Of a DNA stretch of 64,000 bases, positions 1 to 36,833 are shown piece after piece. The DNA is from Ptychomitrium polyphyllum (lineage: Eukaryota): NCBI GenBank assembly GCA_973851085.1, contig OZ316776.1:9052001-9116000 (forward strand), written 5' to 3'. Under the pieces are notes generated by a model. That model saw only the letters and a list, made by a program, of their open reading frames with translations. It was not told the origin of the DNA and did no database searches. How positions within the stretch are numbered: position 1 is the stretch's first letter; every line of letters begins with the position of its first letter. The position numbers and the translations under genes were made by a program.

Positions 1-195
1 CGACCGGAGTGACACAAGGAAATACAGGGGAGACAGGGGATACAGAGTCGGGACGCGATAGGGGACGGCGAGGGGCTTCAAGCGGGGGCCAGCCCGAATC
101 GCAGAGGAGCCTTGGCTCGGAGGATAGTTAGTGACGAGAGCTGAGCGCACGATTTGTCTCGCGAGAACGGGACTTTTGCAGCTGTTTGGTTAGAT

Positions 196-8700: not shown

Positions 8701-8802
8701 CCCGAGCCTTCCAATCTCTCGTGTCCGGCTCCACAACCCGGGGCGTGGGCGGCTGCGGCAAATCCCTAGGCTCCCTCCGACTCCAGTCGTCCTCCCCGCC
8801 AG
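545..8802. repeat. Inverted repeat; arms 545-2720 and 6627-8802 (2,176 bp each)
   Basis: The arm ends mirror exactly (545+8802 = 2720+6627). ORF-track translations in several frames are identical on both arms. Identity breaks at ctggcggggagg (5' side) and just before the stop codon (agc tga versus agt tga). Confidence 0.93.
2930..6633. repeat. Direct duplication 2930-4730 / 4831-6633 across a 100-N gap (4731-4830); probably an unmerged contig overlap
   Basis: Identical ORFs recur at an offset of 1903. The few differences I saw are small indels close to the start of the second contig. Confidence 0.9.
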
Positions 8803-9127
8803 GGCCAGCCGTCAAACCTTCAATCCCCGAGTTTACCAGCTCCTCCGGCGCTTCCGTGCACGCCTCCCGAAACTGCAACAGTCGATCCCTCGCATACCGA
8901 ATCCTCTCATGCGAACTCCTGACCGGCCTCTCAGCCGCCCGCATCACAAACTTACTCGTCGCAAAATTAGGGTTCGGTGTCGACTCGTCATGAAACGCAG
9001 TCTTGGTTCCATTCTGATTCGGTACACTATATGGCCGGAACGACAGAGATCTACCACCTCCTCCGGGACGCAAGGACACAGACGGAGGGGCACTCTGTGA
9101 GGAAGGCGGCGGCGCGGTGGCATCCAT
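6623..9127 (-). CDS. eIF(iso)4G: Translation initiation factor eIF(iso)4G, copy B (intronless CDS, 834 aa from ATG 9127)
   Basis: Starts MDATAPPPSS; eIF4E-binding-type motif RIRYARDRLL; MIF4G and MA3 domains identical to copy A. Confidence 0.95.
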   Translation of the reverse strand: MDATAPPPSSQSAPPSVSLRPGGGGRSLSFRPYSVPNQNGTKTAFHDESTPNPNFATSKFVMRAAERPVRSSHERIRYARDRLLQFREACTEAPEELVNSGIEGLTAGPGGEDDWSRREPRDLPQPPTPRVVEPDTRDWKARAPAPAPAPAQEERSSSREQQRDRNPKQRNERSERGERGDNRGPREQANSAQAQRQAESAPAGPPPAIVKAANPWSARRGAQSEKEKVYRTVKGILNKLTPEKYDLLAEQMMQAGISSAEILQGVISLIFDKAVLEPTFCAMYAQLCVQLSKELPEFPAEQAGEKPITFRRVLLNTCQEEFEGADALREEIKKLTKPEQAVERDEKEKRVKLRTLGNIKLIGELFKQKMLPEKIVHACIQELLGQDPKATPAEENVEALCHLFTTVGKQLEESAKSKMAFDTYFARLKAIGESRGLPSRIRFMVRDILDMRSNKWVPRREEMKAKTINEIHAEAEAKLGLRPGMMALRNGRAPALPGFTPGAGGMMPGMPGMPGMPGGAMPGAPMMGSFLGPGLEADGWETVSTARRSRKDSTGVLPMPGGGSIGGMGSGAMPGAPGGGQARFGSPSMRAGGVGARVLPQGSGGYGFMGKPSALLGTGPPKSVAEVPKAAEAVKEVARPAPAAAAAAAAAAPSADLTKKSESLLKEYFSIVDLNEAALCVQELKSAAFHPELVRLAIATALDMREKECSLVLKLLAHLQSKGVVSSSEVRGGVLLVAEGLEDMAMDAPLAPKRLGGMIAGLVLAGACELVLVEEATAKVEDEVLQKDVVKAVVDTLKSKENEVQLGEVCGSASVDKEGLLSVTVGSDLAKLFS

Positions 9128-11776
9128 AGCTGGGCGACAGCAGAGAAAAAAAGAAACACACAACGGCAGCCACAGAGCACAAGAAGCCACTCTCCCTCTC
9201 TCTCTCTCGGTCGCTCTCTCTGCACGGAGCCGGAGACCCTGCCCTTCCAAGTTCCCCTCTCACTGTCCCTCAAGTCCCTCGAACTTGTTTCCCGTCTTCG
9301 TCTAAGCTACTCAACCATGTGCAGCCGGGCTGCCCGCCAAGTCTGGCTTGCTTACCAACTTGGCTTGTGCCTCTGCTAAGCCTGCCGGACCGGTTCCGAG
9401 TCGTCTATGCGGAGCCCCTGAGTCGGCCTCGTCGCCGCTGCCCCTTCTCACTGCCGGAACCAAGTCACCTGTGAAACCATCGACTAACTTAACCTAGGGC
9501 TGATGAGATCACCTGCCTGGGCACTGCCGCATTGACCTTAGGACCGTAGAAACGGATTTTAGATGTGAGACGATACGGTATTGCGAGGTTCTGGGAATTG
9601 GTACGCCAGCATGTGCTGGCTCGTCATTAGGGGTTTGATATTGTGTTTTTATGTTATCTAACAGACGCGAGTTACGCTTGGTTTGATTTTCATAAAAATT
9701 GTTGAAGTGGGCAGAGTTAATTTTGGATGAATAATGTATAGTGTTTGGATTGGAGTGCAATTCACGAGGCTGTTTTTGGAATGCTTGTTGAAAAAAATAA
9801 AGTAGGTTCTTAGTGTATTAACTTGTAATACTATTGGATAATATATTATATTTTTGTTATGAAGTTATTATAATTTATCATGGTTTATATGTATAAGGTT
9901 TAAAACTTGAACATAATTGGATAATAATATGAATAATAACATGTATTTTTCTTTGGATTATTTATATTTGTTTTTACTTATGCCTTGTGCATCTTGAAAA
10001 GTATCTGAAATCTTTCATTATATATAAAATTATTTTATTACAACTTTTCATTATGAAAATTAATTATAGACTTATATTTTATATTCTTCTATCACAATGT
10101 ATATCTTTATTTAGAGATAATAATGGCTAAGATTTTAATTTTCTAAAGAATTTCGTATTTTTTATTAATAAGTTTTTTTTATATGATTTTAAAATCAAAC
10201 TAAATCTTATGTTATTAAAGTTTTAGTTAAAAACTTGAAATTTTTTAATCATACATTAAAATAGAATTTAAACTTCTTATACAAGTTTTACATTCATTAG
10301 CATCAATTACAGCAAGCAATGTTAAAAATTTAGGATTAATTCTAAGTTCACAATTCAAGCAAAACATTTTGTGACATAATAAAAAACCATATATCTTCAT
10401 GCATCTTTTGGTATTACAAAGGTATGTTTAGTACATGAGATTTAATTAAAGTGATATATATTAGTTGTAGGCAATATTTATGAAATTAGTTGGAATATTA
10501 TGAAGTTGACAAAGAAGTCTAATGATTCAATATTACCAAAAGATGATTCTAATAACTAAAGTAAATTTGACTCATCCCATTTTGTCTCTTAGAATTCCAA
10601 CATAATGCCATATTCCCTTTAACATATTCTTGATTCACATTCACTACAAGACACTTATACTTTAGAATAGTAATTGTGAATGGTGCATAAATTATGGCCT
10701 CCATGTTTGAAAGGAATCTCAAATATGTATATTGACCTACTGTTCACAAAGTTCACTACATTTTTACATTTTTACATTTTTACATTCAAAGGAAGACCTA
10801 AAAATGACATCTTCACAAATAACTAGGTCATTTGATCACGCTCAGAATCTGCCTATGAGCGTTGCTTCGCCAACCGAAGCCCTTCGAGGACATCTGAAGC
10901 GTGTTTGCTTCGACGACAGAGCTGGTGTTCAGAAGTGATGCTGTAACCTAATTGCAACGCCGCGCAGATGCCGGGCCGGGTTGCACCGTTTCACGACCAT
11001 CGCGGGTTGGATCGGCATGTAATCCTAACGGGTTCCAGCAGACGAATAACGGGCCCTTTTTCCACGAAGCTCAACTCGCCCTTGACATGAAGCTGGGGAA
11101 ACTTGCCAGTTCCACTATCCTAGTGATACCTAGGCTATACTCAGCCGATACTAGTGCAATTTAGGTGCAATTCTCTGGCGGGTATTTTCTTTCTCTCTCC
11201 TCTTTCCTCCTCACTTAGGGGGCAGTTCGGGGAAGCTTGCATTACTCCAAAACTATACTCTCTCTAGACCGGTACTGCATCCGAAACGGGCACTATCGAA
11301 TACTGCTAAATTAAATTCTAGAAAATGTAGAGAATGTCGGTTGCAGCTTCTGTGACACATATCGGACACCACCTTTGTCTTTTTTGGAATTTATAACGTG
11401 CATCGAAGGTTTATGTCCGTTTTGGGTGCAGTGACGTTGTTGTGTTTCCAATTTAATTCGGTTTATATCTGCATGATACACAGCAGATACTAGTGTAGTG
11501 CCCCGGTGATATTTAGGCGGGTGTGTTGTCCTTCTCTGCTCTCTGGTTATGATCTCGCTCCTCTTTTTGAGTGAGAACAAAGTCTCAGAGCTCATATTAA
11601 AGAGCGCAAGGCGAGCGCGAGGTGAGGGCGAGAGTGACCGATTGCGGAGCGGTTGCGTATCCGTGTTCTGTTCGAATGTGGAAGTTTGTCTTTTTGGAGT
11701 GGGTGTTGTAGAGGGGAAAAAGAAGAGGTTTGGAGTTGGTTTTGTCCTCAGTTTGGTTGCTGGGAGGGTTTGAGTG

Positions 11777-18595: not shown

Positions 18596-21500
18596 ATGAC
18601 TACTCGATTTCTACCAATACTGACCTTCCTTCACCTGCTCATGCAACCATGGGGCGTTCTTGGACTCTTACCAGACATGGCTGCTCTCTTGGCATTCAAA
18701 AAAAGGTTAACGTTTCTTGGCATCCCTGGTTCACTGTTGGATTGGGTGAAGTCGGATCTCACTCCAGTACCAGTGGACCGGCACGCAGTGCAACACAAGA
18801 GTCATTTGCCTTTTTCTCCCCTAACTCAGCCTCTCTGGCACTAAGTCACAGCTCTTCCCAGCTCTTCACAGTCACAACGTTGCAGCACCTAGCCCGTAGT
18901 ACCAACCTCCTCACTGGTTCCTTACTCCTGTCACTCTTCACCCTTATTAATCTAGAGTATCTTGATTTTAGCTTTTTTGGCCTCTCAGATTGGCAGTTTA
19001 CTGGTGCTTCAGGAAATCCGGGTTGGCATAAATGTATTCCTCCTCAGTTGCAGATCTAGTTAACCTTATTTACCTTGAACTTTGCGTTGATAATCTCACT
19101 GGCGAGATTCAGCCATGGCCTCTTCATCGCAGCTGGAGCGCCTTGTTCTTTCCGGAAACCTGTTGTCGGGTTCCATTTCGCCTTCCCTGGCCACTCTGTC
19201 CAACTTGTCTGTTATAGACTTGAGTAACAATATCTCATTGGTACCATTCCTGTTGATACCGTCAAGATGATGCTTGGTTGAGCTGGACTTAGGGGTTGAG
19301 CTGGACTTAGGGGTTAACCTTCGCACAGGAACCCTGCCCTAGGAGATGGGATACCTCATCAATATGAGGAATATTCCTCTGGGACTCACCAAGCGCACGG
19401 GTCCTATCCCTGCAGAAACATCTCTTATGGGCAACTTGCAAAAGCTCGATCTTGGGGGTACAACCTTGTCTGGTCCTATTCCTGACTCAATTGGGAATCT
19501 GAAGAATCTGGCGATGTTGAATCTGTCATGTACAAGGTTGAATGGTTTTTTACCTGCTTCTCTCGGCCAGTGTCCGAGGTTACAGGTACCTTCCTTCTGC
19601 AATTTTATCAAATTTTCTCTTTTGTTGTTGATGTTTTCTTTGATGTAGGTAAGTGGGGTGCATCTCTTCTAAGATGTATTATACATGTGGAGACAAGCAA
19701 AAATATCAAGATTATAATCTTGCTTCATGTTCTTTCGGTCTTATCTCCAATGTCCATGGCTGGTCACATATCTCGAGTAGACTGATACGCGGTGTTCCCT
19801 TGCCAGGTCTTTGATGTTGCATTCAAGCAACTAAGCAGCACTATTCCTGAAGAGCTTGCTGCTCATGAGAACGTCTACTTGCTTGCTTGATGCTGCTCTG
19901 TTGAGGGAAATCACTTGTCCTATACCAACCTGGTTCGGCAATTGGCGAAACCACTCGTCTCTGCATATGAGAACCAACCACTTCTCCGGCGCCATTCTTC
20001 CTCAGCTGGAACTATGTCCAAACCTGAAGAATCTTGGCCTAGACAGCAACTTGTTGTCAGGCTCCATCCCTCCAGATTTTTGTTAGGCTCCCTTGAAGAC
20101 TTTGTCGTTGAATGACCTCAAGCTCACAGGGAACATCACTCACGCCTTGAAAGCTTGCAAAAGTATCCAAGAACTCGACCTCAACACGAATATGCTCTCC
20201 GGACCCATACCTACTTATTTCGGTACTTTTCCCAACTTTGAGATGAGAAACAGGTTTTCTGGTGGTTTGCCTGACGCTCTGAGGAGCTCCAAGTCTCTAC
20301 TTCAGTTTCAGACGGACAGAAACAACCTCATCGAGACTGTCTCCTTTGGTTGGAAGACTCCCCTCTCTCGCGTATTTTATGTTTTTTGGGGGCCTTTGTG
20401 AGGGGCAGCTCCCTTCCCAACTAGGAGACCTCTCCAACCTCAACGTCTTCTCTACGCAAGGAAACAGGTTCACTGGAACTATCCCAACTCACAACGCTCA
20501 ACCTTGGACGCAACGCCTTCACAGGTACCATCCGCACGAAATTGGACAGTTTGTCAATCTTAACAATCTAGTTTTAAGAGAAAAATAGGCTCACACGAAG
20601 CATTCCCCTTGAAATTCAAAACGATTTTCACGTAACCTGACTACAACATCGGCTTCACCTTCCTCGTTTTTTGCTACCTCTTTCATACCATGCAGAGGCA
20701 TGGATATGATGTTGAACAATTGATATTTGCTCTGTTTCAGGTACTCCCCATGCCGGACAACGTCATTTCTACAACATCGCGGCATATTAGACTTCTCATG
20801 GAACAGCCTCAATGGAAGCATCCCTGCAGCTCATGCACAAAGCACAATGACAATAGAGCTGCTCCTGACAGGCAACCAGTTCACCGGCACTATAACTCCG
20901 GGGCTAGCTAGGCTTGTAAATCTCACCTCTCTAGACCTCTCGAGAAATTTCCTCAACGGCACCATCCCAGCTGATGGGTGACTCACACGCAATCCAGGGC
21001 CTTAATCTCGCCTACAACGAGCTCTCAGGCGCGCATCCCTAACAAGCTCGGCAGCAATCCCAGCCTTGCATTGCTGACCCTAACAGGCAACATGCTCAAT
21101 GGGCCGCTACCTGCTACTCTCGGTAACTTGACGGGGTTGGTTGGTCTGGATGCGAGTTGGTAACCGGCTCAGCGGCGACATACCTCCATCTCTGGGGAAT
21201 CTTGCGTCCATAGTGGGGTTGAACTTGGCGAATAATAAGTTAACTGGCAGTATTGCAAGGTTGCTCTCAGAGCGCACAGTATGGCATCAAGCGCAATAAC
21301 TCAACCTGAGTTTCATCTTTCCGGACCCCTGCTTGCTGGCATCGGAATCCTGACTGGCTTAACAGTTCTTGATCTTCGGCACAACTATTTTACTGGTCAC
21401 ATTCGGAGGGCGCATCCCCAACACCGGGAGTAGCGTTAACTAGAAAACCTCATCCTTTCCTTTAAACTCAAACGTTTGCGGAGAGGGTTTGAAAAACAAA

Positions 21501-21620
21501 GTATCTTGTCGATGGGCGCCATGGCCGAGCTATGAGTTCCGGACAGCGGATATCATGTCCATAACAGGATTTGGAGCACATATTGGCTTCTTCACTATGT
21601 TGTTGACAGATATTCGCTTG
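18596..21620 (+). pseudogene. Decayed EMS1/EXS-like LRR receptor kinase (signal peptide, LRRs, island region and TM remnant; no kinase domain found)
   Basis: Signal peptide plus LRR cap (DMAALLAFKK..LLDW); many plant LRRs (LQKLDLGGTTLSGPIPDSIGNLKNL, LKNLGLDSNLLSGSIP, FLQHRGILDFSWNSLNGSIP) scattered over three frames with stops and frameshifts. The EMS1 resemblance is from recalled sequence. Confidence 0.85.
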
Positions 21621-22023: not shown

Positions 22024-25000
22024 CTAGAACTGATGATCTAGCTTGAGTAGATAAGATTCGACGAGTGCAAGGTTTTGAGGGCATTCAAAGCGCATGTAGA
22101 GAACCGGGCAATCAGAGTTAGTACAAAGAACAGACTGAAAATGCCCCCCCGAATGACACCTCGCACATTCCGCATGAGCTCCAGCTAACTTCATCTCCTG
22201 CTCAGCCATCTCGTGAAATATAGTAGTTGCTGCTTTCTGTGCATGACCTGCCAGAGTACACTCTTGACAAAGAGCTCCTTGCTCATTTTCCAGCGGTTTT
22301 CTGTGCAGAAACAATCAACGTCAAAGATTGTTCCACTTCCTGATTTAACTTTGGCAATTCTGTACTCGTTAAGAACATATTCCAGCTTCAAAAAGTCACC
22401 AGCCGAAGTATACAGATGATCATGACCACAACGGAAAGAAGCTTGTGATGAGGTGAAAAAAAGGACTGGTAGTAGATGTTGATCATCATACCTGCAAATC
22501 AGACAAAGTGTCTTGGGTCGAAAGAAGCTACTAACTAAACCCTGTGACCGGTTTGATGCACCCACATGTACAGACGGAGGAGGGGCAGTATGACTGCCAG
22601 TAAATAATTCCCTCAATGTTGAAGGATCTGTGACAAACTCCAGTATCTGTTTATCAAAAAAATACAGTATCACGATAAGAAACAAACTATAAAGCTATTT
22701 TTTCTGGAAAAGAACTAGCACGTAGAGTGTTCACTTGATACCCTAATAGAAATTGAGATACATCTACAGCTAGACCTACCTCCAGCAACGACTGCAAGGA
22801 AGCTACATTGCGGCCAACATGAATCTCATCACCAAGTCAGCGTTGCTGATTGCAACTCCACTCGTTGAATGCAATGTTCCTAAAAAGCATAAAAGCGGTT
22901 TACAAAAGTAACAAACAGCAAATGCAGGTCAAAGCAATCGTACAGATTCCAGAGGCTTGCGGAGTTTGTTCTCAAGATACACGTGTGTATTCACCGGAAT
23001 GCCTCCAATAAGAGCATCAATTGGATCTTGCGCCATATCATCCTGCCAGCTGGAGTAAGAGAAAGTTCTAGATCTAGCAGATTTATTCTCTTCTGATAAA
23101 TCTCAACCACAAGAACTGCAAACAACCTAAGTTATGATTGCACTAGCTTCACCAAAAAGTCTTCTATAAAAAGAAGCAATTTTTAGCCAGCCCTTACTAT
23201 AGATTACTTCAGTATGTTCGTTAAGATGAGAGTTCTTGGATCGACTGATGCACCTGAAGTTTGTTTGAGTTAGCCATGAGAACATAAGGTACTCTCTCTC
23301 CAATATGAAATTGCCGATCAGGATCTTTTCGTTTCAACCTCACAGAAAGAGCCACATGAGGGCCTCGCCCTTCTTCTGCAGTTGATGCCCCCACATGCTT
23401 GTTGAGACCCTTCGTCACTGCAGCCAACTTTGTAATATCGTTGTCATCGACCCGCCAGAGACCCTGCATCAGCTCGTTTAATGACATCGTTAACCACCTG
23501 AACAACATCGACACAAAGTGGGACTAAATTGGAAAGCATGAATAGGCAGCTGAGCTCTCATTTCTAGAAATTTCCTTTTCTCCTAATGGATTCAGTTACA
23601 GATAGGCATCAAGCAAGCAACTTTCATCAAAAGGGGTCATTTTAAGCAAATATCATTTCATTACCTATACTGCAATGAAATTGAGAAAAAAGTCACCAAC
23701 GAGGGTTTTCAGTTCAAATGATCAATGACAAGCCTTACTCCTGTCATTATATATTCAGATAAGCTCCCTTTGCCTGCCATCACTCGTCGTATCGAATTCT
23801 TGCAGTTTTCCAAAGCACGTGATACGTCATTTTCGACAAGGATGTCATATAATGCCTGTTTGCAGATTTGTCGGACAAATCTGGGCACATCTCGTCTTTC
23901 AGCTTCGATACCCTTTACGAATAATGTTCCTTGCCCTTGATTTGCCTCGCTGCTAGTGTGCTGTTTTCCAGCGTACCTATTGACCTGCTCGTACGTCAAG
24001 TGTCAAGCGTCAACGAATTTAACATGTGAAAGAAATTAAATACCTCTTCACATTCATCTTTTTAAAATATTGAGAAACTAAAAGTGCATCTACTTTGAGT
24101 ATGGATATCGAAGGGCAGAAAAACCGGCCTGGAGGAGAAGAAAAGGACAGAGAACCTGCAATATGAAATTTGTTCAGACATCAGCAAGTTGTCATAACGT
24201 GCATGACCATCCCAAAACAGCACTGAAATCTTCATCACAAATTGCTAACAAAAGCTAGATATAACATCTTCGCTACATTCTCTTCATGATTGTACATCGA
24301 GACTATCAAAAGGTCAAAATTGTAGGAATTCTGAAGTCACCCTTTCAAACTTGAGAACAATGGGAGAAGGAAAGGCTTGAGAGACGATCTCAGCAGCTTG
24401 AGTGCCCAGTTTGATAGCTTCATCAATGCTGGAACCTTTGAAGCAAACAAAAACACTGTCGGTCTGTGCATAAATGACCTGCGCATTTTCGGAGATACTG
24501 CCAGCAAGCTGCACAGCTTGCTTACATGATTCGGCCCCCATGCTGCAATAAGCGAATGTATCACATGAACAATGTAAGTATGAATAAGACACTAAATATC
24601 AAAGTTCAACCAAGTCCTGAATTTTTGGAAAAAGTTTATTCAGTTGACATGTCTCTGCTTGGAACTGCCTTCGGCCAGTCTTCCGATTGTTTTATGCACT
24701 GCAGAAAGCCCAGCATTCATACCCAACTAGTACCTATGCCTCAAATTCTAACCCAGTAGAATGGTACGACGACATAAGAAATCTCTTATGAAAGTGGCTT
24801 GAACCTGCATCACTTCAACCGATTACCATGATTCTCACACATCTTGAGACAACATGAGCTTAAGCACAATTGCACTTTAATAGTGTGCAGACAGTTTCAA
24901 ATATTACCTCAAGCAAGAGTCCGCTAATGGAAGTGCCTGTTGAGGTGATGCACTCGCACCTGTGAATCCATACAAAGCATTTGAGCAGAGCTGCAAAAAC

Positions 25001-28000
25001 AATGCAGACCTCATTTAGTGCATGTAGCCTGTCTAAACTAGTGGAGAATGACAATGTAGATGGTAATCTTTTGAAACAATCTGCTATAACAGGTCACCAC
25101 AACACCAAATAGAGATTTTATAGTTGCACCTTCAGCGCCTTCTGCCTCCCATCCAGCACAGCATGCTCTTCAGGACTAATACTCTGCTTGGCCATACGGT
25201 CTCTAGCTTGTTTTCGTGCTGTGATCAAAGCACCTACGAGGAAATTAAAGTTATCAATGTGCACAAGAACATAATTGCTTAGTATGAACGGAACGTGTTT
25301 TTTCGCAGAACACTACTTTTAGCGTTAAATGCCAATCCCTACCGTCTTGTCAAAACAGGAAAGGTTACAGTTTGCTTGTGAATGATCGCTACTGATCAAC
25401 AGTAGAAGATGACAAGGTTGATATTGTCTGAGCTTCAGCAAGCTCTAGAGCAACTAAGAGAATAGGAAATTGAAAAGTCGTACAACGATCATGAGGCCTC
25501 ATAACAGGGCTTTGATTGGAAACTAATGCTTCTATAGAGTAAGCTCATACCACAAATGCGGGGCAAAACACCTCGACGCACCGATGCCACTACAAATTGT
25601 GCACCAGTCGGGCTAGAGCATCCACCCATCGGCCATCCAAAGGCAAACCGTTGAAACTCATCAGATAGTTGAGCATCACAAATTCAATCAATTGGAGCCT
25701 CAGATATAAATTCAAATTTACTGACTAAAGGACAAATTTCCACGTATGTAGAGAGGTTTCAGGTGACAGCGGTAGGAAATTGTTCAACAAGTCAGATGCA
25801 GGGCTATCCAGAACAATAGAACAAGCACGAGGTTTTAGTGAAGACACCGTCCTTATCTATCCACAAAAACTCCAATAGGTGGTCGAAGAGAATTCCAAAA
25901 CTTACCTTGTTGTTAAATGATGAGCAGGCATTGTTTTCGCATCCTCGGGATGTACCAACGTTGTGTAACACCTGATCATCAAAGGAATTCTAAAAAACAC
26001 CGTGTTCTAAAATTCCTAGAGAACTAATTAACATGGCAACATCGAATCCAAAACCGACAAGGCTCAAGTTTCAGGCAACAAACACGAATTCATTTCATTC
26101 TAAGCTGTGAGTCAATTTCAGAATCCAAATCTGAAAGAACGAGTTGCTCAGGACTTACAGGTTGTAGGCCATGAATAATGATGGGTAAAGCGAAGCAAAA
26201 TCCAAAACTGCGATGGGGTCCTGAATGTAGAACATCTCAAGTCACCAATAAGGAAGGTTTCTCTACAGCTTGCATGAACACTCAGGCACTTACATAGCTC
26301 ATCTGCTTCGTTAACTTCATATGTTATCAACAGCAACACAACAAGCATTATGGAGCCAAAGCTGGTGTTGTTTCTGAAACTTGAGAGCACCACTTTCGTG
26401 GGTCAAATACCTGATAAAACCCGGCAGTACGATTCTCTTTTGGATGTAGCAGAAAAGGGCTCTCTGATAGTTGGCCTGTATCATAAAGTCACCAGACAGA
26501 GACTTTAGGAGATATGGATCAACATGGGCAAATTGTGCATGCAATGTCGTACAATTGTTGAAGGATATCTTGGCATCAACGTTACCATGAAGCCAGCATG
26601 ATGCATAAAAAACCCATTTATCAAAACTATGCTTCTACACATTCCAAGGCTACAAGAATTATGTCCATATATAAATACCTTTCTCTTATAAGGTTGAAAA
26701 TTTCTAGAACATAAAACTTACCGTTCAAAGTTGTTCCTCCCAGAAGCCAACCTTCCCTACGCGCACTTCGTAGAAGCAGGCTCTAAGACGACAAAGAAAT
26801 CAGCACTTATGCAATAATCAGTAGCCTCTATAACTACTAAAGCGAAATAACAATAGAAATTATCCAAAATATAGGATCATGAATCAATGAGACAGTCCAC
26901 TTACTTGGACTCGCACCATTTGAGCTTTGTAGAGGACATCAGAAAGTGTCAGCCCAGTAACTCTTGCCATCTCCACTGTCTCTGGAACAGTTTGCAACCT
27001 CTCCATAAGTTTAAGAGCAATCTGTCAGGCATAGTGTCAAACATGAATCAATATGTGCAAGCGTTCACAAATACCACAGATTAATTACTTTTGCGAATAC
27101 ACGGAATACACGAATCGGAAGCAAGCACACCATAATCAGTGTGTTGAAGAAGCATCTCAAATAGTCTTCCTTTGTAATCTGGATCATTCAAAGTAAAGGA
27201 CTTTCTTTTCTTAAATCGGGGTTCTAATTGAGCAGAGAAATGATCAAATGCCCACCTCAGCTTCATGGAGAGAGTATAACAGAAGTCGACTAAGACCCCC
27301 ATGCTTGCCTTGCCAAAGCTCCGACACTGCAGCACTTGAAAGCACCTCTTTCGGAGTTCCTAGAAACAACTGTCCCCATCTAATGCAACGCTATTCAAGT
27401 ACTGGGGTTTGCATGGTAGCCAACAAGCAACTTAAAACCTAGGGTCTTCAGATACATAAGTAGGAAATCTGAGAAGTACAACTGCTCCTGACAACTACAA
27501 CGGCCAAGGACCAGTAATATCTTGAACAAAATTTCGAAGAAATCTACTAAAAGCATTTAACTAAACGCGCAGGCATTTAAATAGAGGTGCACCTAAACGA
27601 CTATGATCCTCGTACTTGAGTAAGGAAAAGCTGCACTCTTAGAGAGTGCGGCGTCAGTTGCGAAATGCAGATTAGAAGACACATACAAACCAGTCAAAGA
27701 AATATCAAGCACTTCACAAATTGGCAAAAGCAAGTTCACCTGAGAACACTCCCCCAGAGTGAAGGTGGAGAGGTTAAACGACACCAGCACAACTCGGAGC
27801 ATGTCAATAACTAATCTTCCCTCTACGTAGGCCCTAAATACCTCCTGATTCGAAGTTGATGACATACGAGCCTGCTGCCTTACCCAATGTTTTCCATAAG
27901 TCACAACTGATTTCACCTGCAGAATTCACAGGTAACACATTCAGAGTCACCATACGGTCAACTTCACCATACTCTCGATCAAGATCTAACCCTGCCATTA

Positions 28001-31000
28001 TTATGACATATTGTTAGTGTGCTAAATGAACATGAGGAATGTCTATACCTCAGTTGTTTGTCCCTTACGTCGACCAATATCAAAAGCTCCCAGCTTTAGG
28101 ACCTTAAAACGTTCTGCCATATACCGCAAGCTCTCCTTCATTTGATACACACAAACTACATCCGGATCGATCTCCCAATAGAAAAACTCACGCCATGCTG
28201 TTAGCATGGCTATTTCAGAGTCGAATTCCCGTACTTCAATTCCTGGCAGTGCCCCTTGCTGAGAACTCTTGCCATAAGTAAAAACAACCTGCCTTATCCT
28301 ATCTCGATCCCCCAGACAGCGAAGAATATGAGATATCACAAGCACCGGATCCCTTGATGGAATTGCAGAGCCTCCACTTGCTAGATTGCTGAGGCCCTCA
28401 ATGTCAGTAACACTAGCTTCCTCATCGCCAGGAAAACCTGATTTGATTTCTCCACTAGCCCTACTTTTTGTAGTCAGCTTGACGAGAGATTCAGATTTTC
28501 CTCTGCCTCTACCTCTACCTCTACCTCTTCCTGCTTTAACAGTCGAACCACTGCTGCTTTCCTTAGTTCCAGTCAACACTTTCCCACCACCAGAACACTG
28601 TACATGTAAGGAGACTATCCGTAATGGGGCGATTAGATTCCAAGTAGCCTCCCCAGATATTGAAGGCAAAGAAGGTCCGCTACCACTTGAAGAAGTGATT
28701 AGGCTTGGCTCCTCCCATGTGCAGATATTACTTTTAATCTGAGTGAATTCAGGGAGGTCCTCCGCATCTGGAGTAGATGTGTCACTCTGGTCGTCCATGT
28801 CCAAAATAATTTCTCGACTCCGTTGCGTACCAAAATCCTCACTGTTATTCAGGACAGTTGATGCATTTGCAGCTGATTCCGTGAACTCCATGTGATGTGT
28901 CGCATCTGGGGTTAATCCAACGAGATTCCGCCAGCATGCAGCCAGCTCTTTGGAGCACCTCGTCTTCTGTTGATCATGCGGAATTGGTTTAGCCTGCTTG
29001 ATTTCCACCCAAGAGCCTCCTGCCATTGCTGTATCACAAAAGAATCGCATGCCCAACTGCCCAAGCAAGTAACTATCATGTGGATAGAATGTTCAGGAAA
29101 ATGAAAATTGAGAATAAGAAAACACATGTTTCAGCTCAACTCTCATGCGATTACCGCTATCAAAGCATAACTGCCATAGATATCGAAAGTTTTACACGTC
29201 AAAATAGCTAATGGCGAAAATATACATGGCGAAAATGTACATGACAAACGTGGATTTCATCAAACAATATCAAGGACAAGAAAGCCAGATTCATCTCGTT
29301 AGTTCAGAGGTGCCAATGGAGAATGGAAAAAACCTATCAATTACATACAAGATACTCGAATTATATAGATAGGCACTAACTTTGATGCCCTCTTCATGAG
29401 AAGTGTGATCCTTCCAGACGAGGCCTTCGGATTGCATCTCGTTCTCCTCAGCTAGTGCCGTCAGCTCCTTCGAAACTACACCAATGTCTTTACCCCTCCA
29501 TACTTCCACCTACATCATGAAGTCAGATATAGGAGTAAGTTTACAAGCAAATCATGTCCACAAAAGACATATATTTCCTTCCTGTTCTCAAACTATTCCT
29601 CTTTAAAACCCGCACGAACACAACATCCAAGGCAATAGAAACAAACCTTTAGGAACAAAAAGGGTCCCCCACGACGGTAATACATAAGCGGAGTCCTGTA
29701 TTCTACTGTAATTGCGGCAACCTGCAAGAGCACAACACTTGTATGAACGAACACAAGTAACCCAGACATGACCTGATACGGTTTGCATGAAACTCGCGAA
29801 CGCCTGCAACTGCATGCTAATTAAATGCAAGTTGAGATCCCTCAGATGATTAGAACTTCTGCAGAAATAACAGTCCAAAAAAAAACCATTTAATGAATTG
29901 GTCTTTGTTCATTGAGCTGTTTTCAGTCGCTTAGAAATAAAATCTGTTTCAAAAGTACCAAAACAACGAAAAACTCCTGTTGGAAGTCAAGATATCTTAC
30001 AAACTGATCGCTGGAGCCACCAGTTTTCTTACGGCTGGCCAGCACTTTTTGATTAAGATGCTCTTTAACGGTGTCCAAGCTGCCTTCATTTAAGGGCACT
30101 TCCTTCCCATCAACTTTACACACAGGAGCTGGAAACCAGAAATAAGGTACATAATCTGCACCGCCAACCGATTTATGGTAATTTCTCTGTTCCAAAGTTT
30201 TGTTACAACTCAAGAAAATCTAAGAAGCAAATCAAAAAACAGCATATACTTGTGTAAATGTGCTTATCTTCAACATTTATCTTGACCAATAGACCACCAC
30301 AAGCATCAAGTGCTGTAGAACAATCTCCAAGCTGCAGATAGCCTTCTAAGGAATTCAAAGTTCAGACATGGAGTATAATAGCGCTTCTGAGCTAAAGCTC
30401 GACACGGTGCAACAAAGACGGGCAGCTCAGCACAAAGCTATGTCACTGATGACAATTAAACCAAGATAGTAATTCTAATTGGAATGACTGCACCCACTGC
30501 TTTCATTATTCTAAACGACTATTGGCTAGCCTGACGTCCAAGCATTACTTCAGAGGCACCAACCATTTACGTGAACTGCAATGCTTTCACCATCCGATTT
30601 CAACCCGTAGAGAAGCACCTGCTCCACATACACACAAAAAAAAGAAGCAGAATAAGCTTCCCCATTATTATTGTTTCAGCTGTACGCCTCACGATTGACT
30701 CACATCCATCATATGGCGTATTCCCAAGATGCCAAGATGCCAAGATAGTCAGACACCATGGCAAAAAATTACGGCACACACACCAACCTAACAACGAAAC
30801 CAAAGCCTGACACCAAAAGCATCCCTGAAAGATTCGAAGGATCCTTCCTTTGGCATAAGAAACACTCGATCCATCAAAAACATCCCGGAATCCAATGCTC
30901 CCTGAGCGACTAAATAACATCTTCAAGGGCAGACTTCAAGCTCATACAAGGCCACTGTAAGAACTCCCCACAGTAAAAGTCTCCGGAAAAAATTAATGAT

Positions 31001-31097
31001 GTTGGCTTGTACGCACAGAAGGCGCAGTAGCGGATGCAGAAGCCGGGGCGTCGGTGAAGACGGCGTCCAGCAGCATCATCCGCACCGGTTCGGCCAT
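22024..31097 (-). CDS. Divergent family-B DNA polymerase, paralog of the Pol delta catalytic subunit (about 20 exons; exonuclease motifs degenerate)
   Basis: Motif A DPIAVLDFASLYPSLFMAYNL (~26160-26220); motif B RQKALK|LCSNALYGFTGA (~24950-25150); motif C IYAQTDSVFV (24455-24472); VKGIEAERRD; GERVPYVL; C-terminal CLIC..CQEC and CARC..LCTNSDCPVLY. Likely start MAEPVRMMLLD at 31097, preceded by an in-frame stop. The N-terminal exons are less certain. Confidence 0.88.
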
Positions 31098-31344
31098 GGC
31101 GCGCTTGAGCGGGTCTCCAACTGCAACGCGCCGCTCCTCGTCCAGAGCTTACTTCACGTTCATTCCTTCATTCCCACCTCCCTCGCCCCCACCTTCGAGA
31201 CAACACCTCCGCATACTCCAAGCCAATCTCTAGTCCACCTCCAGAGCTCTCCCCGATGGTGTGCAGTTGCCAGTGCACCACAACCGACGCATGCTCACAG
31301 ATGCCCACACCCAGCAACGCCGTCACTTTGGAACGCCGGCACCA

Positions 31345-31418
31345 CCATCGCCATCGCCATCGCCATCGCCATCGCCATCGCCATCGCCGTCGCCATCGCC
31401 ATCGCCGTCGCCATCGCC
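31345..31418. repeat. (GCCATC)n hexamer microsatellite with GCCGTC variants, upstream of the polymerase gene
   Basis: About 12 units read directly from the sequence. Confidence 0.9.
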
Positions 31419-34179
31419 GCCACTCCCCGCCTGCTGAGAGGTTCCGCTGCAATTGAACCCAGTCCCCCAACTGGCTGTTTTGCATTCATTTCATTAAGCA
31501 ACAATGCTACACGTCCATGGTCTTTGTGTTTGAGTGTGTGTTGCTTTGCTTACGACCACGTTTTAGTCCCCAACCATGCGTTTTCGATGCTCAAAGCATC
31601 GAAGGATGGTGCAGAGTTAGCATTTGAATCTTAACTTTATTGGATTTCCTTCAGTTTGTGAAGGATTGAATATGCTTGATTTGTGCACCGCTGAACATGC
31701 CAATCTCATCGCGGGTGGCAATCTCCCTTCTTTAGAATTTGTGTTAAAGGATGCACACCAAAAATCAAATCAAAACAAAAGATACGCCGGGCACATGTTT
31801 TTGTCTGTGTCTTTTTGATATAATAAAGAAAAATTGAGTAATATTGTGACATATGTATGTGACTTATTACTTCCTCCAAAATTCCCGTTTTATTTTCATG
31901 CCACAATTAATTGATGAAAGTTGTTTTTGTGTTAAAGTTAGAACAAAGAATTTGGACCAAAATTTAATATTTCAAATGAAACTTATGACAATGTTGCTAG
32001 TTACAATTAGGTGTGAATTGAAGGAAGTGTAACATGGTTTATTTGGAAGTTGCTCTACAATTGGAAGAGTACAAAGGTTGAGTATTATTTTATGGATTGA
32101 AAACTTGAAAGTTTATTTTGTGCAACTTTTTAATTTGAAAATATTATTGTAAAAAAGCCAAAGATAAACAATTAAATGTTGTTTTTAATAAAGAAGTTGT
32201 AGAAATATGCAATAGAAAGAAAAGTTTGTATATAAGTTAATTTGCAATTGATGTTGTAATTGGCTAGAAATTAGTGTTGTAGGTTGAAGTTTGACAAAAA
32301 AAATTATAAGCTATTTAAAAGTTGGAAGAATGGAAGGTGGAGATTTTCACAAGTAGTATCAATTTTTAATATGTGCAATGTAGCTATAGGCTCTAGCATT
32401 CTATTTTTTCATTAAGCATTCTAATTGTCTTGTTTTCTTTTAAAAATACTCCAAATGATAATAGAATTATACTAAATGTAGATGCAAATGTCTTTAGATT
32501 TATTATAGCTGATATGTTCTTATAGTCTTATTAGTATAAAAATAGAATATTGCACATAATGAAGTCAAATGCGCAAGATGCAATTTGAACTTGGCTATTG
32601 ATACAAGATGCTTTATCCATGTACCTTTTAAATAATTAGAAAATGAGGTTTTTTTTTATAAAAAAAGAGTTAAATTACTTGTTTTATTAAATATTTGTTA
32701 TAAAAGTTTTAATATTTAAAATTATTACTAGTAAATATTGCATTTCAAAAAATTAATACTATAAGATAATTTTTGCAACTATTATAGTACTTTCCACATT
32801 TATATAGCAAAAGCATCAATTGCATGGAAATTTTTGCATTTTGGTTTTTAAATAATGTCCCTTATTAATATTAGGATTACACTTCTAAATCGTAGTTGTT
32901 TGTTCAAAGAATGGATACTTATTTTTGAAAATATTAAATTTAATATGCAAGTTTAAGAAGTCTCTTCAATGTATTTTTTTGGATGTAAATAAATAAACTT
33001 AATTTATTAAATTTCATTCATCATTATTATATGGTTCATAAAAACTGTAATTCTATAATTCTTAATTGAGGAAATTGAAAAATATAAAATTAAGTGATAT
33101 CAGGTAAATAATTATTTTTCTTCACTCCAAATTGTTTAATAAAATTTTTTTTTTTTTTTTTTGTTTGGAACAATTTCCAAGATCTATAAACTACTAATCT
33201 TTCATGCACAATTTGTCAATTATGTGCATTTTTTTATCAATTTTGTGATTTCTAAGACATTTTCAAAGCATAAGAGATTTTTAGCAAAACTCACATATAA
33301 CCACATGAATCACTTTACTAGCTTCTATAGAATTAAAGCTCTTTTTTAATGTTCATTTTTATAAATTTTACAACTTCACCATCATTACAATGACAACTTT
33401 TAAACTTAATTTCTCTTTTCTATGATCAATCTTGGACAATATATCAGAATAATTTTAAATAAGTTTTGTAGATAGACACTATTGATTTGAGCTTTCTTAG
33501 CATGTAAGGATTTTGATGAATTTTTGGTGGATTTGCACAAAAATTACTTTGAATTTTGCAAGGACCATACATACATTGCACATTGCCATAGTTTAATTTC
33601 AAACAATTACTACTCAAGTATTTGTGGATTTTAAATATTGAATCTATCAATAAATTTTGCTATTTGAATGAAGGTACAATCCTTTCAAAAATATCACAAT
33701 GCATGTAACTCTACAAGATATTTAAATATAAGTTATTACTACATATCATTTAAAAATAATTATAATTTAAGGACCCTCATTTTTAGTTAAGTTAAACATT
33801 GAAAGTACTCAATATGAAACACACAAATCAAAATGGAACAAAGTTCACCATCTATTCTATCTTGTACTTTTGCATGACCACCTAAAAATAAGTGCATTTG
33901 ACACATCTATGGAATACACCTTGCCACACTAATCTGAATGTATCCTTATAAACTCATGCCTATACTATCAAATCACCAATCAGAGTTGCACAATATGAGA
34001 TACAAAGCTCAAATGATTAAAACCAGGTGAAACTCAAAAACCCCTCTAACCTTCTAAACAAACACACCATAAAAAGAGTAAAAAGAGTCATCTTCCAGGT
34101 AGCAACACCCATAACCATACGGAAACCAAACGTGGTAACCATCAACAAAAACAATACTCTTGGAAACCAAGCTCCTACA

Positions 34180-34682: not shown

Positions 34683-36833
34683 CTAGCAGGCGCTCTTGGG
34701 AACGCAGTAGAGGGGCCCGGCGTCTTGTGTCATGGCGGGCACCCACGAGACGTGGCGAGGCACGAAGCTGCGAGCTCTGTCGTAGTTGCTGGCTGACGCG
34801 TTCTGCACTCCGGAGCCAGTGAAGAAGGCACCGTTTGCGAAGCTGTCGCCAGTGGATGTCCAGTCCCACTTTTGCCATCCGCCGAACGTGGGTCCATCGT
34901 CGTCGATCCGGGACGTCACCTAGAAGTGAACAATGGCGTGCGAGAATAAGGAGACAATCTGGGTTGACCCCCACGTTCGACCGGAGATGTAGGATGAGTT
35001 TGTTACCTCTTTCCGGTTGCTGGCGTCAGGGGCAATGAATTGGTTGCATTGGCTCAAAAAAGTTGGATCCTCGCTTCCACCGATGGCGTATGAGCCCCAC
35101 CCTGAGGTGTAGAAATTGTTGGCCACATGGCAGTTTCCGTAGCGACATCTGCAAAAGAAGTGAGGCTCATCAGTACCCTGGAATCGGAGTTCAAGTTTAC
35201 ATTCATTGTTTCTACAAAAACAGAGCCGGTTGCGAGGAACAAATTCACATCATTCAGCATCGAACATCATGAGTGTTTCAGAGAAAAGCGAATGCTCACC
35301 TGGGCATTCTCTGGGTAAGCCCAGGTCCAAATTTGTTGAAGGCTACTGTAATCTGCATGTTTCTGTCGTAGTCATCCTTGGGACTCGCCCCGAACAGCAT
35401 CACCTGAAAAGAACATCAACAAGTTCATTAAGAGGATATGTTTCATGAAGATGCAGAAAATTTTTGGAGGGATTGATGATCAGAGTGGCCAAGCCCCACC
35501 TTGTTGTGATTCTCGAAGTAGCAGTTTGAGACGGTAATGTTGGTAGAGTTTTTCGTTGCATCGATCAAGCCATCGGTCGACTTCGACAGAAAGCAATGGT
35601 CAACCCAAACATTGACCGAATTTTTTATGTGAATGGCGTCGCCATCGCTAGAGCCACGGAATGTTCGAAGGTTCGGCGCGGTGAGGATGTGGTGAGGGCC
35701 TGAGGGGAGAATGTCGAGGACATAGATTCCATGGATGATAACGTTGGAGACCCCCTCGATGGTGATTTGGGAGGTGCCCACGAGGTGAATTTCTGCGCCG
35801 CGCCCGTCGATGGTCTTGTAGCTCGACATGACAAGCTCGCCTCTGAGCTCGATAGTCATGTTCTTGATGAAGATGATCCACAAGGGCTCCGTGCGGGTGG
35901 CGCCGTAGCGCAGGGTCCCGGGGGCAGGGTTGTCGATGTCGTCGTCGTTGCTAGTGACGACGTAGAGCATCCCGTTCTTGCCTCCGAAGGCATGTTGTCC
36001 AAATCCAACTGCACACGATGCGAGCGCTTGACGACGGTCCTGCCAGTTGGGATCGCAGCGCCAGCAATCGTCAATGTAGTTCCCTGTTTTGCATGACCCC
36101 TGACTTCTAGGTTTCTGAAATGGCATTAAGAGTTGTGGCTCTTCTGCAGCCTCATCAACGTCGACATTCTCTTGCTGATCTCTACAATCACCATGAAATC
36201 AGTGCCAGATGATAAGATAACACCTCTGGAACTGTCAAAGTCTAGAATTCCTGAAGGGCTGTGACATCTCTCAATTGTGTAATCATTCCAGAATGACTCT
36301 GTTAACTCGGTAAAAATCTGGATGCCAACCAGTCGAGCCAATCCGTAGTTAAGATGTACACTGTTGATGATTCTTAATAAAATCGTCTGGAGCGTCCGAA
36401 ATAAGATAATCAATGGAAAAAACTATGAAAACAATACTTGATGAGGACTGATTTGAAAGATGAGGAAAAATCAGGCACTGTTGTTGGACACTTACTCTCG
36501 ATACTCTGCGGTGTAAATGAATCCTGCGTCTGAGGTATTGATGAACTTTTCTGGTGCTTCGAGGTCGAGTTCATTAGACTCGTACTCTTGATTCTTGTCA
36601 CCAGCTGGTGCTACTCTTGGGTAGTCCAGGAGGTTGGCAATGGATTGAAGGAAAGCTCTCAAATTCGTGACCAAAGTGGCTTTTGGGATAAGAAGGTCCT
36701 TAGTAGGAATGGTTGCAACGTTGGTACCGATGTTGTTGTTTAGAATCTGATTCGATGAATGAGCTTCACAATGTTGGAAGACTAACAGGAGGATGGCAAG
36801 AACAAGGAGATAGTGAGCTGCCGTATTCGCCAT
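34683..36833 (-). CDS. Pectate lyase (PL1 family), secreted; about 5 exons
   Basis: Signal peptide [74 protein letters not shown] and YAIGGS motifs; last exon VTSRIDDDG...[10 protein letters not shown]. Confidence 0.93.

Follow-up and report, generated by a model that had tools for sequence, protein, structure and literature searches.

The window analysed here is a 64,000-nucleotide stretch of the moss Ptychomitrium polyphyllum (GenBank assembly GCA_973851085.1, contig OZ316776.1, positions 9,052,001 to 9,116,000 of the forward strand). It carries on its minus strand a gene for a B-family DNA polymerase that resembles POLD1 of Pol delta, with an ATG at 31097 and a stop codon that ends at 22024. 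Exons were fixed by six-frame reading, a listing of splice sites, and tblastn with Physcomitrium and fern orthologues. Joined by coordinates, they give a 23-exon model of 3,630 nt that encodes 1,209 amino acids (aa) plus the stop and contains no internal stop or frameshift. The model bears out the original prediction, in which exons spliced by hand were collinear with POLD1 and free of such lesions. The gene very probably represents a separate, old and maintained Pol delta-like family. Its product is an intact Pol delta-like protein that lacks proofreading residues and keeps both metal-binding aspartates, and it acts, somewhat more probably than not, as a damage-induced, PCNA-bound repair polymerase.

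22024..31097, minus strand: whole gene, 23 coding exons, 1,209 aa (open frame, splice sites, tblastn, junctions in the metagenome contigs L084 and L095)
31097-31017, 30618-30564, 30155-30001, 29721-29647, 29509-29381, 29056-28049, 27916-27740, 27369-27256, minus strand: exons 1-8
27021-26905, 26782-26722, 26475-26411, 26220-26159, 25971-25906, 25612-25551, 25233-25130, 24990-24908, minus strand: exons 9-16
24542-24341, 24155-24129, 23984-23739, 23463-23254, 23042-22944, 22646-22492, 22300-22024, minus strand: exons 17-23
23985..24128, minus strand: GC-AG intron 18 (junction read through in L084 and L095, and likewise in the Physcomitrium protein)

The introns are of the GT-AG type in 21 of 22 cases, and intron 18 (24128-23985) is GC-AG. 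Aligned to the annotated Physcomitrium patens protein XP_024401114 (P0008), the exons are collinear, with identity at 953 of 1,209 aligned positions (78.8%). L084 and L095 are spliced moss-like sequences. L095 reads through all nine junctions that it covers and L084 through 14 of 15, with an intron retained where the moss gene has intron 13. Two public runs from a single study and sample, possibly the window's own source, have contigs that span the gene without differences, gaps or joints; these contigs have repeat-like ends at 21578 and 21881, beyond the 3' end of the gene. Fragments resembling leucine-rich repeats and containing stops, judged by eye, lie just downstream (~21000-21450, plus strand), and a (CATCGC)n microsatellite occupies ~31345-31425, ~250 nt upstream of the start codon.

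The domains and motifs of the protein were located as follows.

28907..31082, minus strand: Pol delta-type N-terminal domain, ~aa 6-215 (the POL3_N match in the orthologue is weak, E 9e-5, under the cut-off)
28364..28903, minus strand: two poorly conserved low-complexity inserts flanking ExoI, ~aa 217-303 and 322-396, the second with an RG repeat (predicted local distance difference test score, pLDDT, <50 in the fern model)
28595..28612, minus strand: dead ExoI SLHVQC, aa 314 (POLD1 SFDIEC)
28130..28150, minus strand: dead ExoII VYQMKES, aa 468 (POLD1 GYNIxxFD)
27839..27898, minus strand: family signature Y-x3-W-V-x2-Q-x-R-M-x2-T-S-N-Q-E, aa 508-527, a ~10-residue insert at the tip of the exonuclease-domain beta-hairpin
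27259..27276, minus strand: ExoIII YSLHEA, aa 592 (POLD1 YCLKDA), with Asp changed to Glu here and to Arg in most chlorophytes
26179..26202, minus strand: motif A DFASLYPS, aa 686, catalytic Asp686 retained
24958..25147, minus strand: motif B (fingers) R-Q-x-A-L-K-x3-N-A-x-Y-G, intron 15 inside, Lys777, Asn781 and Tyr784 retained
24455..24472, minus strand: motif C YAQTDS, aa 829 (POLD1 YGDTDS), catalytic Asp833 retained, first Asp changed to Gln/His
23973..23984, minus strand: VNRY in place of KKRY, aa 882, with Asn883 at the position of RB69 K706
23452..23747, minus strand: thumb signature MTGGLWR, aa 961-967, intron 19 inside, Trp966 family-wide
22521..22544, minus strand: QGLVSSFF, like a canonical PCNA-interacting-protein (PIP) box, directly before CysA, predicted PCNA contact
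22258..22505, minus strand: CysA zinc motif, aa 1114-1132, intron 22 inside
22108..22167, minus strand: CysB four-cysteine motif, aa 1163-1182 (zf-C4pol E 1.5e-11 in the orthologue)

Every motif quoted in the original prediction (SLHVQC, VYQMKES, YSLHEA, DFASLYPS, YAQTDS and VNRY) is present in the model. Its description of the enzyme as proofreading-dead stands for ExoI and ExoII, the clearly dead sites, and needs refining for ExoIII, where land-plant members keep an acid (Asp to Glu). The Asp and Glu of ExoI occur together in none of the 18 family rows that cover the site, versus all 20 POLD1 rows. The insert at aa 508-527 is placed by alignment at what we take to be the exonuclease-domain hairpin of Pol delta. 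With partial models counted, 44 of the 56 green members and 10 of the 17 non-green ones show its pattern, as does none of 240 canonical POLD1-like sequences. The thumb tryptophan is present in all 19 covering family rows and in none of 20 POLD1 rows. Other residues shared throughout the family include Arg518 (19/19), Asn524, Ala782 and Arg635 (20/20 each), and Glu1019 is a further shared mark.

The residues kept in motifs A, B and C are the metal- and dNTP (deoxynucleoside triphosphate)-binding residues of B-family enzymes (PMC3564110; this and the other papers are cited from the sections available). The motif A aspartate is found in 56 of 57 rows, the sole exception being a split gene model, and the motif B Lys, Asn and Tyr in 56/56 each. 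Motif C reads Y[AGCS][QH]TDS in 55 of 57 rows, the region being missing in two models, and its second Asp is invariant (55/55); fungal members and Platysulcus retain YGDTDS. At the KKRY lysine position, all 55 covering green and pelagophyte-type sequences have Asn, and the preceding Lys is Val in green members. Elsewhere in the family, six of six fungal-group rows have Lys (RKRY) and two Platysulcus-type rows have Arg. The polymerase core was originally called intact, which is too strong for the green branch with its altered KKRY lysine.

CysB of Pol delta and Pol zeta binds an Fe-S cluster and the B subunit. The Fe-S tail is intact in the moss protein, as first read, with both CysA and CysB in place, and the CysB pattern recurs in 40 of 56 green members (partial models counted). 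The PIP-like pattern Q-x-x-[ILMVF]-x-x-[FY]-[FY] is carried by 33 of 56 green members, one of 17 non-green members and none of 17 canonical POLD1s. All 22 family members examined match PF00136, the DNA_pol_B core. A phmmer search of the Protein Data Bank (PDB) with the Physcomitrium orthologue finds human Pol delta at E 5e-116. Modelled by AlphaFold, the fern orthologue (pLDDT 81.9, predicted template modelling score 0.81) has Pol delta as its best fold match (Foldseek E 8e-70; by VIA, Z 34.2 and root-mean-square deviation 2.8 over 919 residues). For P0008, the ESM Atlas returned generic PolB clusters only.

A query with the large exon retrieved four longer proteins, from Physcomitrium patens, a fern-like source, Adiantum and Ceratopteris. 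The moss protein is 53-57% identical to the fern proteins and ~33% identical to true POLD1, as against ~70-90% among plant POLD1s, in agreement with the earlier view that it is too divergent for a plant POLD1. Residues 500-1100 of P0008 were then used for a search among 7,988 candidates, which gave 361 matches, the best 120 of them listed. Apart from the self match, the top 55 rows have 38-71% identity and come from mosses, ferns, Diphasiastrum, Klebsormidium, Chlorokybus, Closterium and many chlorophytes. After a gap, canonical POLD1s follow at 32-36%, with one divergent family member (P0101) mixed in. No named member from seed plants, liverworts, Ceratodon, Sphagnum or Selaginella is among the matches listed, and annotation gaps may contribute; canonical POLD1s of these groups do appear in the searches.

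The moss gene is under purifying selection. By the Nei-Gojobori method, the ratio of nonsynonymous to synonymous substitution rates (dN/dS) is 0.09 against L084 (648 codons, dS 1.3) and 0.08 against L095 (472 codons, dS 2.3), values that are approximate with dS near saturation. A ratio of ~0.09 in comparison with two spliced moss sequences is well away from 1, in keeping with the proposal of a maintained gene.

A profile search over 1.84 billion representatives, from which the best 150 were listed, extended the family well beyond plants. In a 147-row FastTree, the green clade is joined by Platysulcus tardus, by proteins of the pelagophyte type and by a seven-member group, in which are the fungi Gonapodya, Paraphysoderma, Rhizophlyctis, Saitoella and Savitreella. 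Members thus occur in mosses, ferns, a lycophyte, charophytes, chlorophytes, Aureococcus, Platysulcus and five fungi, and the idea of a plant-only enzyme has to be abandoned in favour of one that reaches fungi and stramenopiles. A clade-specific pattern also retrieved 15 metagenome loci, each of which matches family members. One pelagophyte-type sequence could be placed through its neighbour: the L090 polymerase adjoins an SRP54 gene that clusters with Aureococcus anophagefferens, and it matches the visible part of Aureococcus F0XX34 (PMC7544198 supplement).

L090 2179-5625, minus strand: intronless Aureococcus-type member, without CysB and with a RanBP2-type finger-like motif at its end

The RanBP2-type zinc-finger-like motif at the end of pelagophyte-type members was recognised by eye and has no Pfam match.

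Under LG+C20+F+G4 with 51 rows, the 20 family rows form one clade (Shimodaira-Hasegawa-like approximate likelihood ratio test, SH-aLRT, 99), which falls outside the clade formed by 19 canonical POLD1s (96). The family clade holds without the four longest rows (SH-aLRT 99). Approximately unbiased (AU) tests on 29 rows reject a grouping of the green family with green POLD1 (p 1.5e-66), and with it an origin by duplication of green POLD1, as well as a grouping of the fungal family with four canonical POLD1s (p 2.7e-43). The tree of green members follows species order. All supports are SH-aLRT or FastTree local values, branches are long, and the trees were built without REV3, POLA1 and POLE rows; scans for REV3 motifs in viral and prokaryotic contigs gave no match. 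Near-duplicates and fragments that lacked motif A or C or were shorter than 680 aa were left out, with one exception kept. Taken together, a single clade from fungi to plants is likely. The family thus appears, from these comparisons, to be old, shared by fungi and plants, and apparently lost in seed plants. Beside it branches a set of Pol delta-like proteins (P0305, P0310, P0311, P0360, P0362 and P0337) with degenerate ExoI/II, intact YGDTDS and no hairpin insert, which may be another unrecognised paralogue group.

The family gene and a canonical POLD1 occur together in Physcomitrium, Ceratopteris, Diphasiastrum and Adiantum nelumboides. With a Ceratodon POLD1 as query, canonical POLD1 comes up twice in Physcomitrium, on a contig of 19.53 Mb and on one of 5.30 Mb, the latter copy being PHYPA_030860, while the P0008 cluster holds PHYPA_022292 on a contig of 15.99 Mb. 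Physcomitrium chromosomes 6 and 27 are, as we assume, ~19.5 and ~5.3 Mb long, so that the two canonical copies take these chromosomes and leave chromosome 17. Published lists for this moss give three ‘POLD subunit 1’ genes, on chromosomes 6, 17 and 27, and place REV3 as a separate gene, Pp3c2_33440, on chromosome 2 (PMC8711748). By elimination, P0008 is very likely Pp3c17_18800. Since Physcomitrium has its own REV3, the moss gene is not a REV3 orthologue. Purifying selection, the co-occurrence with POLD1 in four plants, the separate Physcomitrium REV3 and a clade of its own support the proposal of a separate, maintained B-family polymerase outside the orthologues of POLD1, REV3, POLA1 and POLE.

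Published transcriptomes give this gene a physiological context. Pp3c17_18800 rises 5.5-fold after bleomycin (1,438 vs 301 reads), and the same table gives 7.7-fold for POLD4 and 4.0-fold for REV3 (PMC4990234). Supplementary file 1 of that study lacks the identifiers of both canonical POLD1 genes, and its accessible text reports no Pp3c17_18800 knockout. In a self-organising map (SOM), the gene falls in cluster 8, which is gamma-responsive and SOG1-dependent and also contains REV3, REV1, Pol eta-1, POLQ, POLD3 and POLD4 (PMC8711748). In Cymbomonas, gene models P0057 and P0067 join a family polymerase to an N-terminal ExoIII/AP-endonuclease-like domain (PF03372, E 3e-15). The expression data, this fusion and the pelagophyte finger are hints that point to repair and prove nothing. 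The damage induction of the likely orthologue lends support to the repair function guessed at the outset.

On balance, the moss protein is slightly more likely than not an active repair polymerase. It would fill gaps or extend from damaged or mismatched primer ends. Because a PIP-like motif precedes CysA and CysB is present, PCNA binding and use of POLD2 are predicted: the enzyme may dock on PCNA through the PIP box and CysA, and borrow POLD2/POLD3 through CysB as REV3 does, as a third catalytic subunit on the same scaffold. A frayed primer could not move to an exonuclease site. Instead, the hairpin insert and the thumb Trp-Arg would grip the template or downstream DNA, a role suggested by the position of the insert at the exonuclease-domain hairpin of Pol delta. 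Green and pelagophyte members have both the motif-C Asp changed to Gln/His and the KKRY Lys changed to Asn, a pair of changes that might relax sensing of the penultimate base pair, at the price of a slower enzyme. In the RB69 polymerase, the first motif-C Asp (D621) and K706 form a salt bridge; if this holds, the two changes may amount to one compensated swap. Primer-independent PolBs without the first motif-C Asp are active (PMC7544198).

Several observations weigh against an active repair polymerase. Green members with Asn for the KKRY lysine may be weak or inactive, which is the strongest of these points: activity is almost lost in RB69 K706A and badly reduced in phi29 K498T, and the Pol epsilon mutant K967A needs very high dNTP to work (PMC4333401). 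The CysB of Klebsormidium is degenerate, and that of pelagophyte-type members is degenerate or absent. The expression argument passes through the assignment of P0008 to Pp3c17_18800, an elimination that uses assumed chromosome sizes. Induction is not specific, as cluster 8 comprises 2,312 genes including the canonical POLD1 of chromosome 6, and the available parts of PMC8711748 list no SOG1 motif for Pp3c17_18800; nor is one present in the window at 30601-33100 around the start codon. The Cymbomonas fusion, found in a single species, could be an artefact of gene-model merging, and the literature searched holds no enzyme assay or mutant of the family. Alternatively, the green and pelagophyte protein might be catalytically crippled and serve in repair as a DNA-end-binding protein or a PCNA/POLD2 scaffold, comparable to the C-terminal half of Pol epsilon in replication, with polymerisation left to the fungal branch. 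All covering green rows have other residues in place of both KKRY lysines and of the first motif-C Asp, the lysine is near-essential in the three enzymes named above, and green members gained the canonical PIP box. We consider this unlikely. Across chlorophytes, streptophytes and pelagophytes, motifs A, B and C have invariant metal- and dNTP-binding residues, which would be needless for a scaffold, and the replacements are fixed (always Asn in the one case, Gln or His in the other), unlike random decay, and may compensate each other through the salt bridge. The six fungal-group members share the dead exonuclease and the hairpin and keep YGDTDS and the KKRY lysine, so that they give no argument against activity.

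Other alternatives concern the descent of the family. It may have branched near the split of delta and zeta, judging from residues held in common, and it could even be a short sister of REV3, that is, a Pol zeta-like extender without the large REV7-binding insert and not a sister of POLD1. Twelve columns separate the family from POLD1, and 11 were readable by eye against yeast Rev3, the one Rev3 sequence compared; six match the family (aa 108, 627, 664, 792, 836 and 1019), two match POLD1 and three neither. The exonuclease is dead in the family as in Rev3, and both carry an insert ahead of ExoI. However, Phe836 also occurs in two archaeal-type outgroup rows, the insert is <90 aa in the moss protein versus ~400 aa between matched stretches of yeast Rev3, and none of 22 members has a REV3_N Pfam match. 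Similarity is consistently stronger to Pol delta than to Rev3 for the moss orthologue (E 5e-116 vs 6e-46), the Gonapodya member (2e-146 vs 6e-61) and the family profile (2e-252 vs 5e-146), and Physcomitrium has the REV3 of its own. A sister of REV3 is hence somewhat doubtful as an explanation, and it would be compatible with a repair role. Quite improbable, in our judgement, is that the wide clade is an artefact of separate POLD1 duplications, proofreading losses and long-branch attraction, or reflects horizontal transfer instead of descent from early eukaryotes. Long branches, a patchy distribution, support by SH-aLRT only and the Gln/Asn state common to pelagophytes and green algae speak for it, and the exonuclease-dead P0305, P0310, P0311 and P0337, which adjoin the family without the hairpin motif, indicate that proofreading can be lost independently. 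Against this stand the shared insert sequence, the thumb Trp, Ala782 and Arg635, which rate alone does not explain, together with the persistence of the clade under the mixture model and without the longest rows, both AU rejections and the species order of green members. Domestication of a polymerase from an endogenous giant virus is very improbable. Giant-virus PolBs are close to Pol delta (PMC7544198), and the Medusavirus PolB is the best viral fold match. The giant-virus PolB at L006 4001-6469 has a CysB-like, cysteine-rich C-terminal tail and lies close to cellular Pol delta in the trees. The viral comparison covered the best 80 loci of a scan, three further loci and a scan for the VNRY pattern. 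The best 80 loci are only 26-30% identical and all have YGDTDS, the green-type VNRY pattern is found in no viral contig (the 15 metagenome loci all match family members), viral rows fall outside the family in all trees, and the moss gene has 22 introns and a cellular CysA/CysB tail. Barely credible, finally, is that the gene is a duplicate in decay, or that it is the sole POLD1 of the organism and unusually divergent. The evidence for a canonical POLD1 beside the family gene comes from species other than the window's own; the open frame, dN/dS <0.1 and orthologues from mosses to fungi refute a pseudogene, and a canonical POLD1 stands alongside in four plants.

With the repair polymerase as the preferred reading, comparison with known systems helps to define it. 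POLD1/Pol3 (PDB 6s1m, 6p1h, 7kc0, 3iay) is the best match in sequence and fold and agrees in domain order, size, motifs A and B, the CysA/CysB tail and a PIP-like motif at the equivalent place. The moss protein is ~33% identical to it and stands apart through dead ExoI/II, the hairpin insert and the thumb Trp, and the family through YAQTDS and VNRY in its green branch, its position outside the canonical clade and its coexistence with POLD1. REV3 (PDB 7lxd, 6v8p) is likewise exonuclease-dead, has CysA/CysB, is damage-induced in moss and has several residues in common with the family, whereas family members have ~1,100-1,300 aa, lack a REV3_N match, carry a short insert before ExoI and are much less similar to it; yeast Rev3 keeps YGDTDS and KKRY. 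Archaeal PolB2 and bacterial G2 enzymes, with a degenerate exonuclease, and primer-independent PolBs, with one motif-C Asp, resemble the family (PMC7544198) but are distant clades without the eukaryotic CysA/CysB tail and serve as analogy only. Giant-virus PolBs (EukVir2, e.g., Medusavirus) have a Pol delta-like fold and are the nearest viral structural match; unlike the green members, their best 80 loci keep YGDTDS, and those in the trees stand outside the family.

Family proteins are named POLD1 or hypothetical in databases. The very likely Physcomitrium orthologue, 79% identical, appears as ‘POLD subunit 1b’ or ‘DNA polymerase B: delta subunit’ (Pp3c17_18800; PMC8711748, PMC4990234), and the available sections of both papers treat it as a POLD1 copy and note no motif loss, separate family or mutant. 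A table in PMC7544198 labels the Klebsormidium, Chlamydomonas, Aureococcus, Gonapodya and Saitoella members PolBmain, and the accessible text defines no such group. The family is not mentioned in the available parts of a plant polymerase review (PMC6801657) or a fungal repair review (PMC13451438). No paper naming or describing it was found in the literature searched, which leaves most subscription journals outside, and the original statement that no characterised plant enzyme resembles it has held within that scope.

Elsewhere in the window, two intronless frames with MIF4G and MA3 domains, presumably eIF(iso)4G-like, face each other at 145-2724 (plus strand) and 6623-9259 (minus strand). They differ by 11 mismatches in the last 2,200 nt, and their 5' parts differ; the 3' near-identity combined with 5' divergence suggests a recent inverted duplication or gene conversion. 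A pectate lyase exon lies at 35443-36198 (minus strand; PF00544, E 8e-15).

By the usual teaching, the B-family polymerases of eukaryotes are alpha, delta, epsilon and zeta. We tentatively propose, with slightly less than an even chance of being right in full, a fifth nuclear member as old as the split of fungi and plants: a repair enzyme that is active, does not proofread, works on the Pol delta/zeta scaffold and has its own DNA-gripping hairpin. This compound proposal also holds that the enzyme persisted in mosses, ferns and lycophytes, in green algae (Chlamydomonas among them), in some stramenopiles and in early-branching fungi, that it was lost in seed plants, animals and model yeasts, and that its green form rewired the primer-sensing Asp-Lys pair. 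A further conserved paralogue alters how many polymerases early eukaryotes are credited with and how the delta/zeta split is explained. With the green form, nature tests two residues regarded as near-essential for B-family catalysis, and the family is present in Physcomitrium and Chlamydomonas, both with routine knockouts. The naming as POLD1 confuses studies of orthology and expression, as in the published transcriptomes, where the likely moss orthologue rises after DNA breaks under that label. If the proposal is true, the enzyme would be a candidate for part of the moss's unusual break repair and gene targeting.

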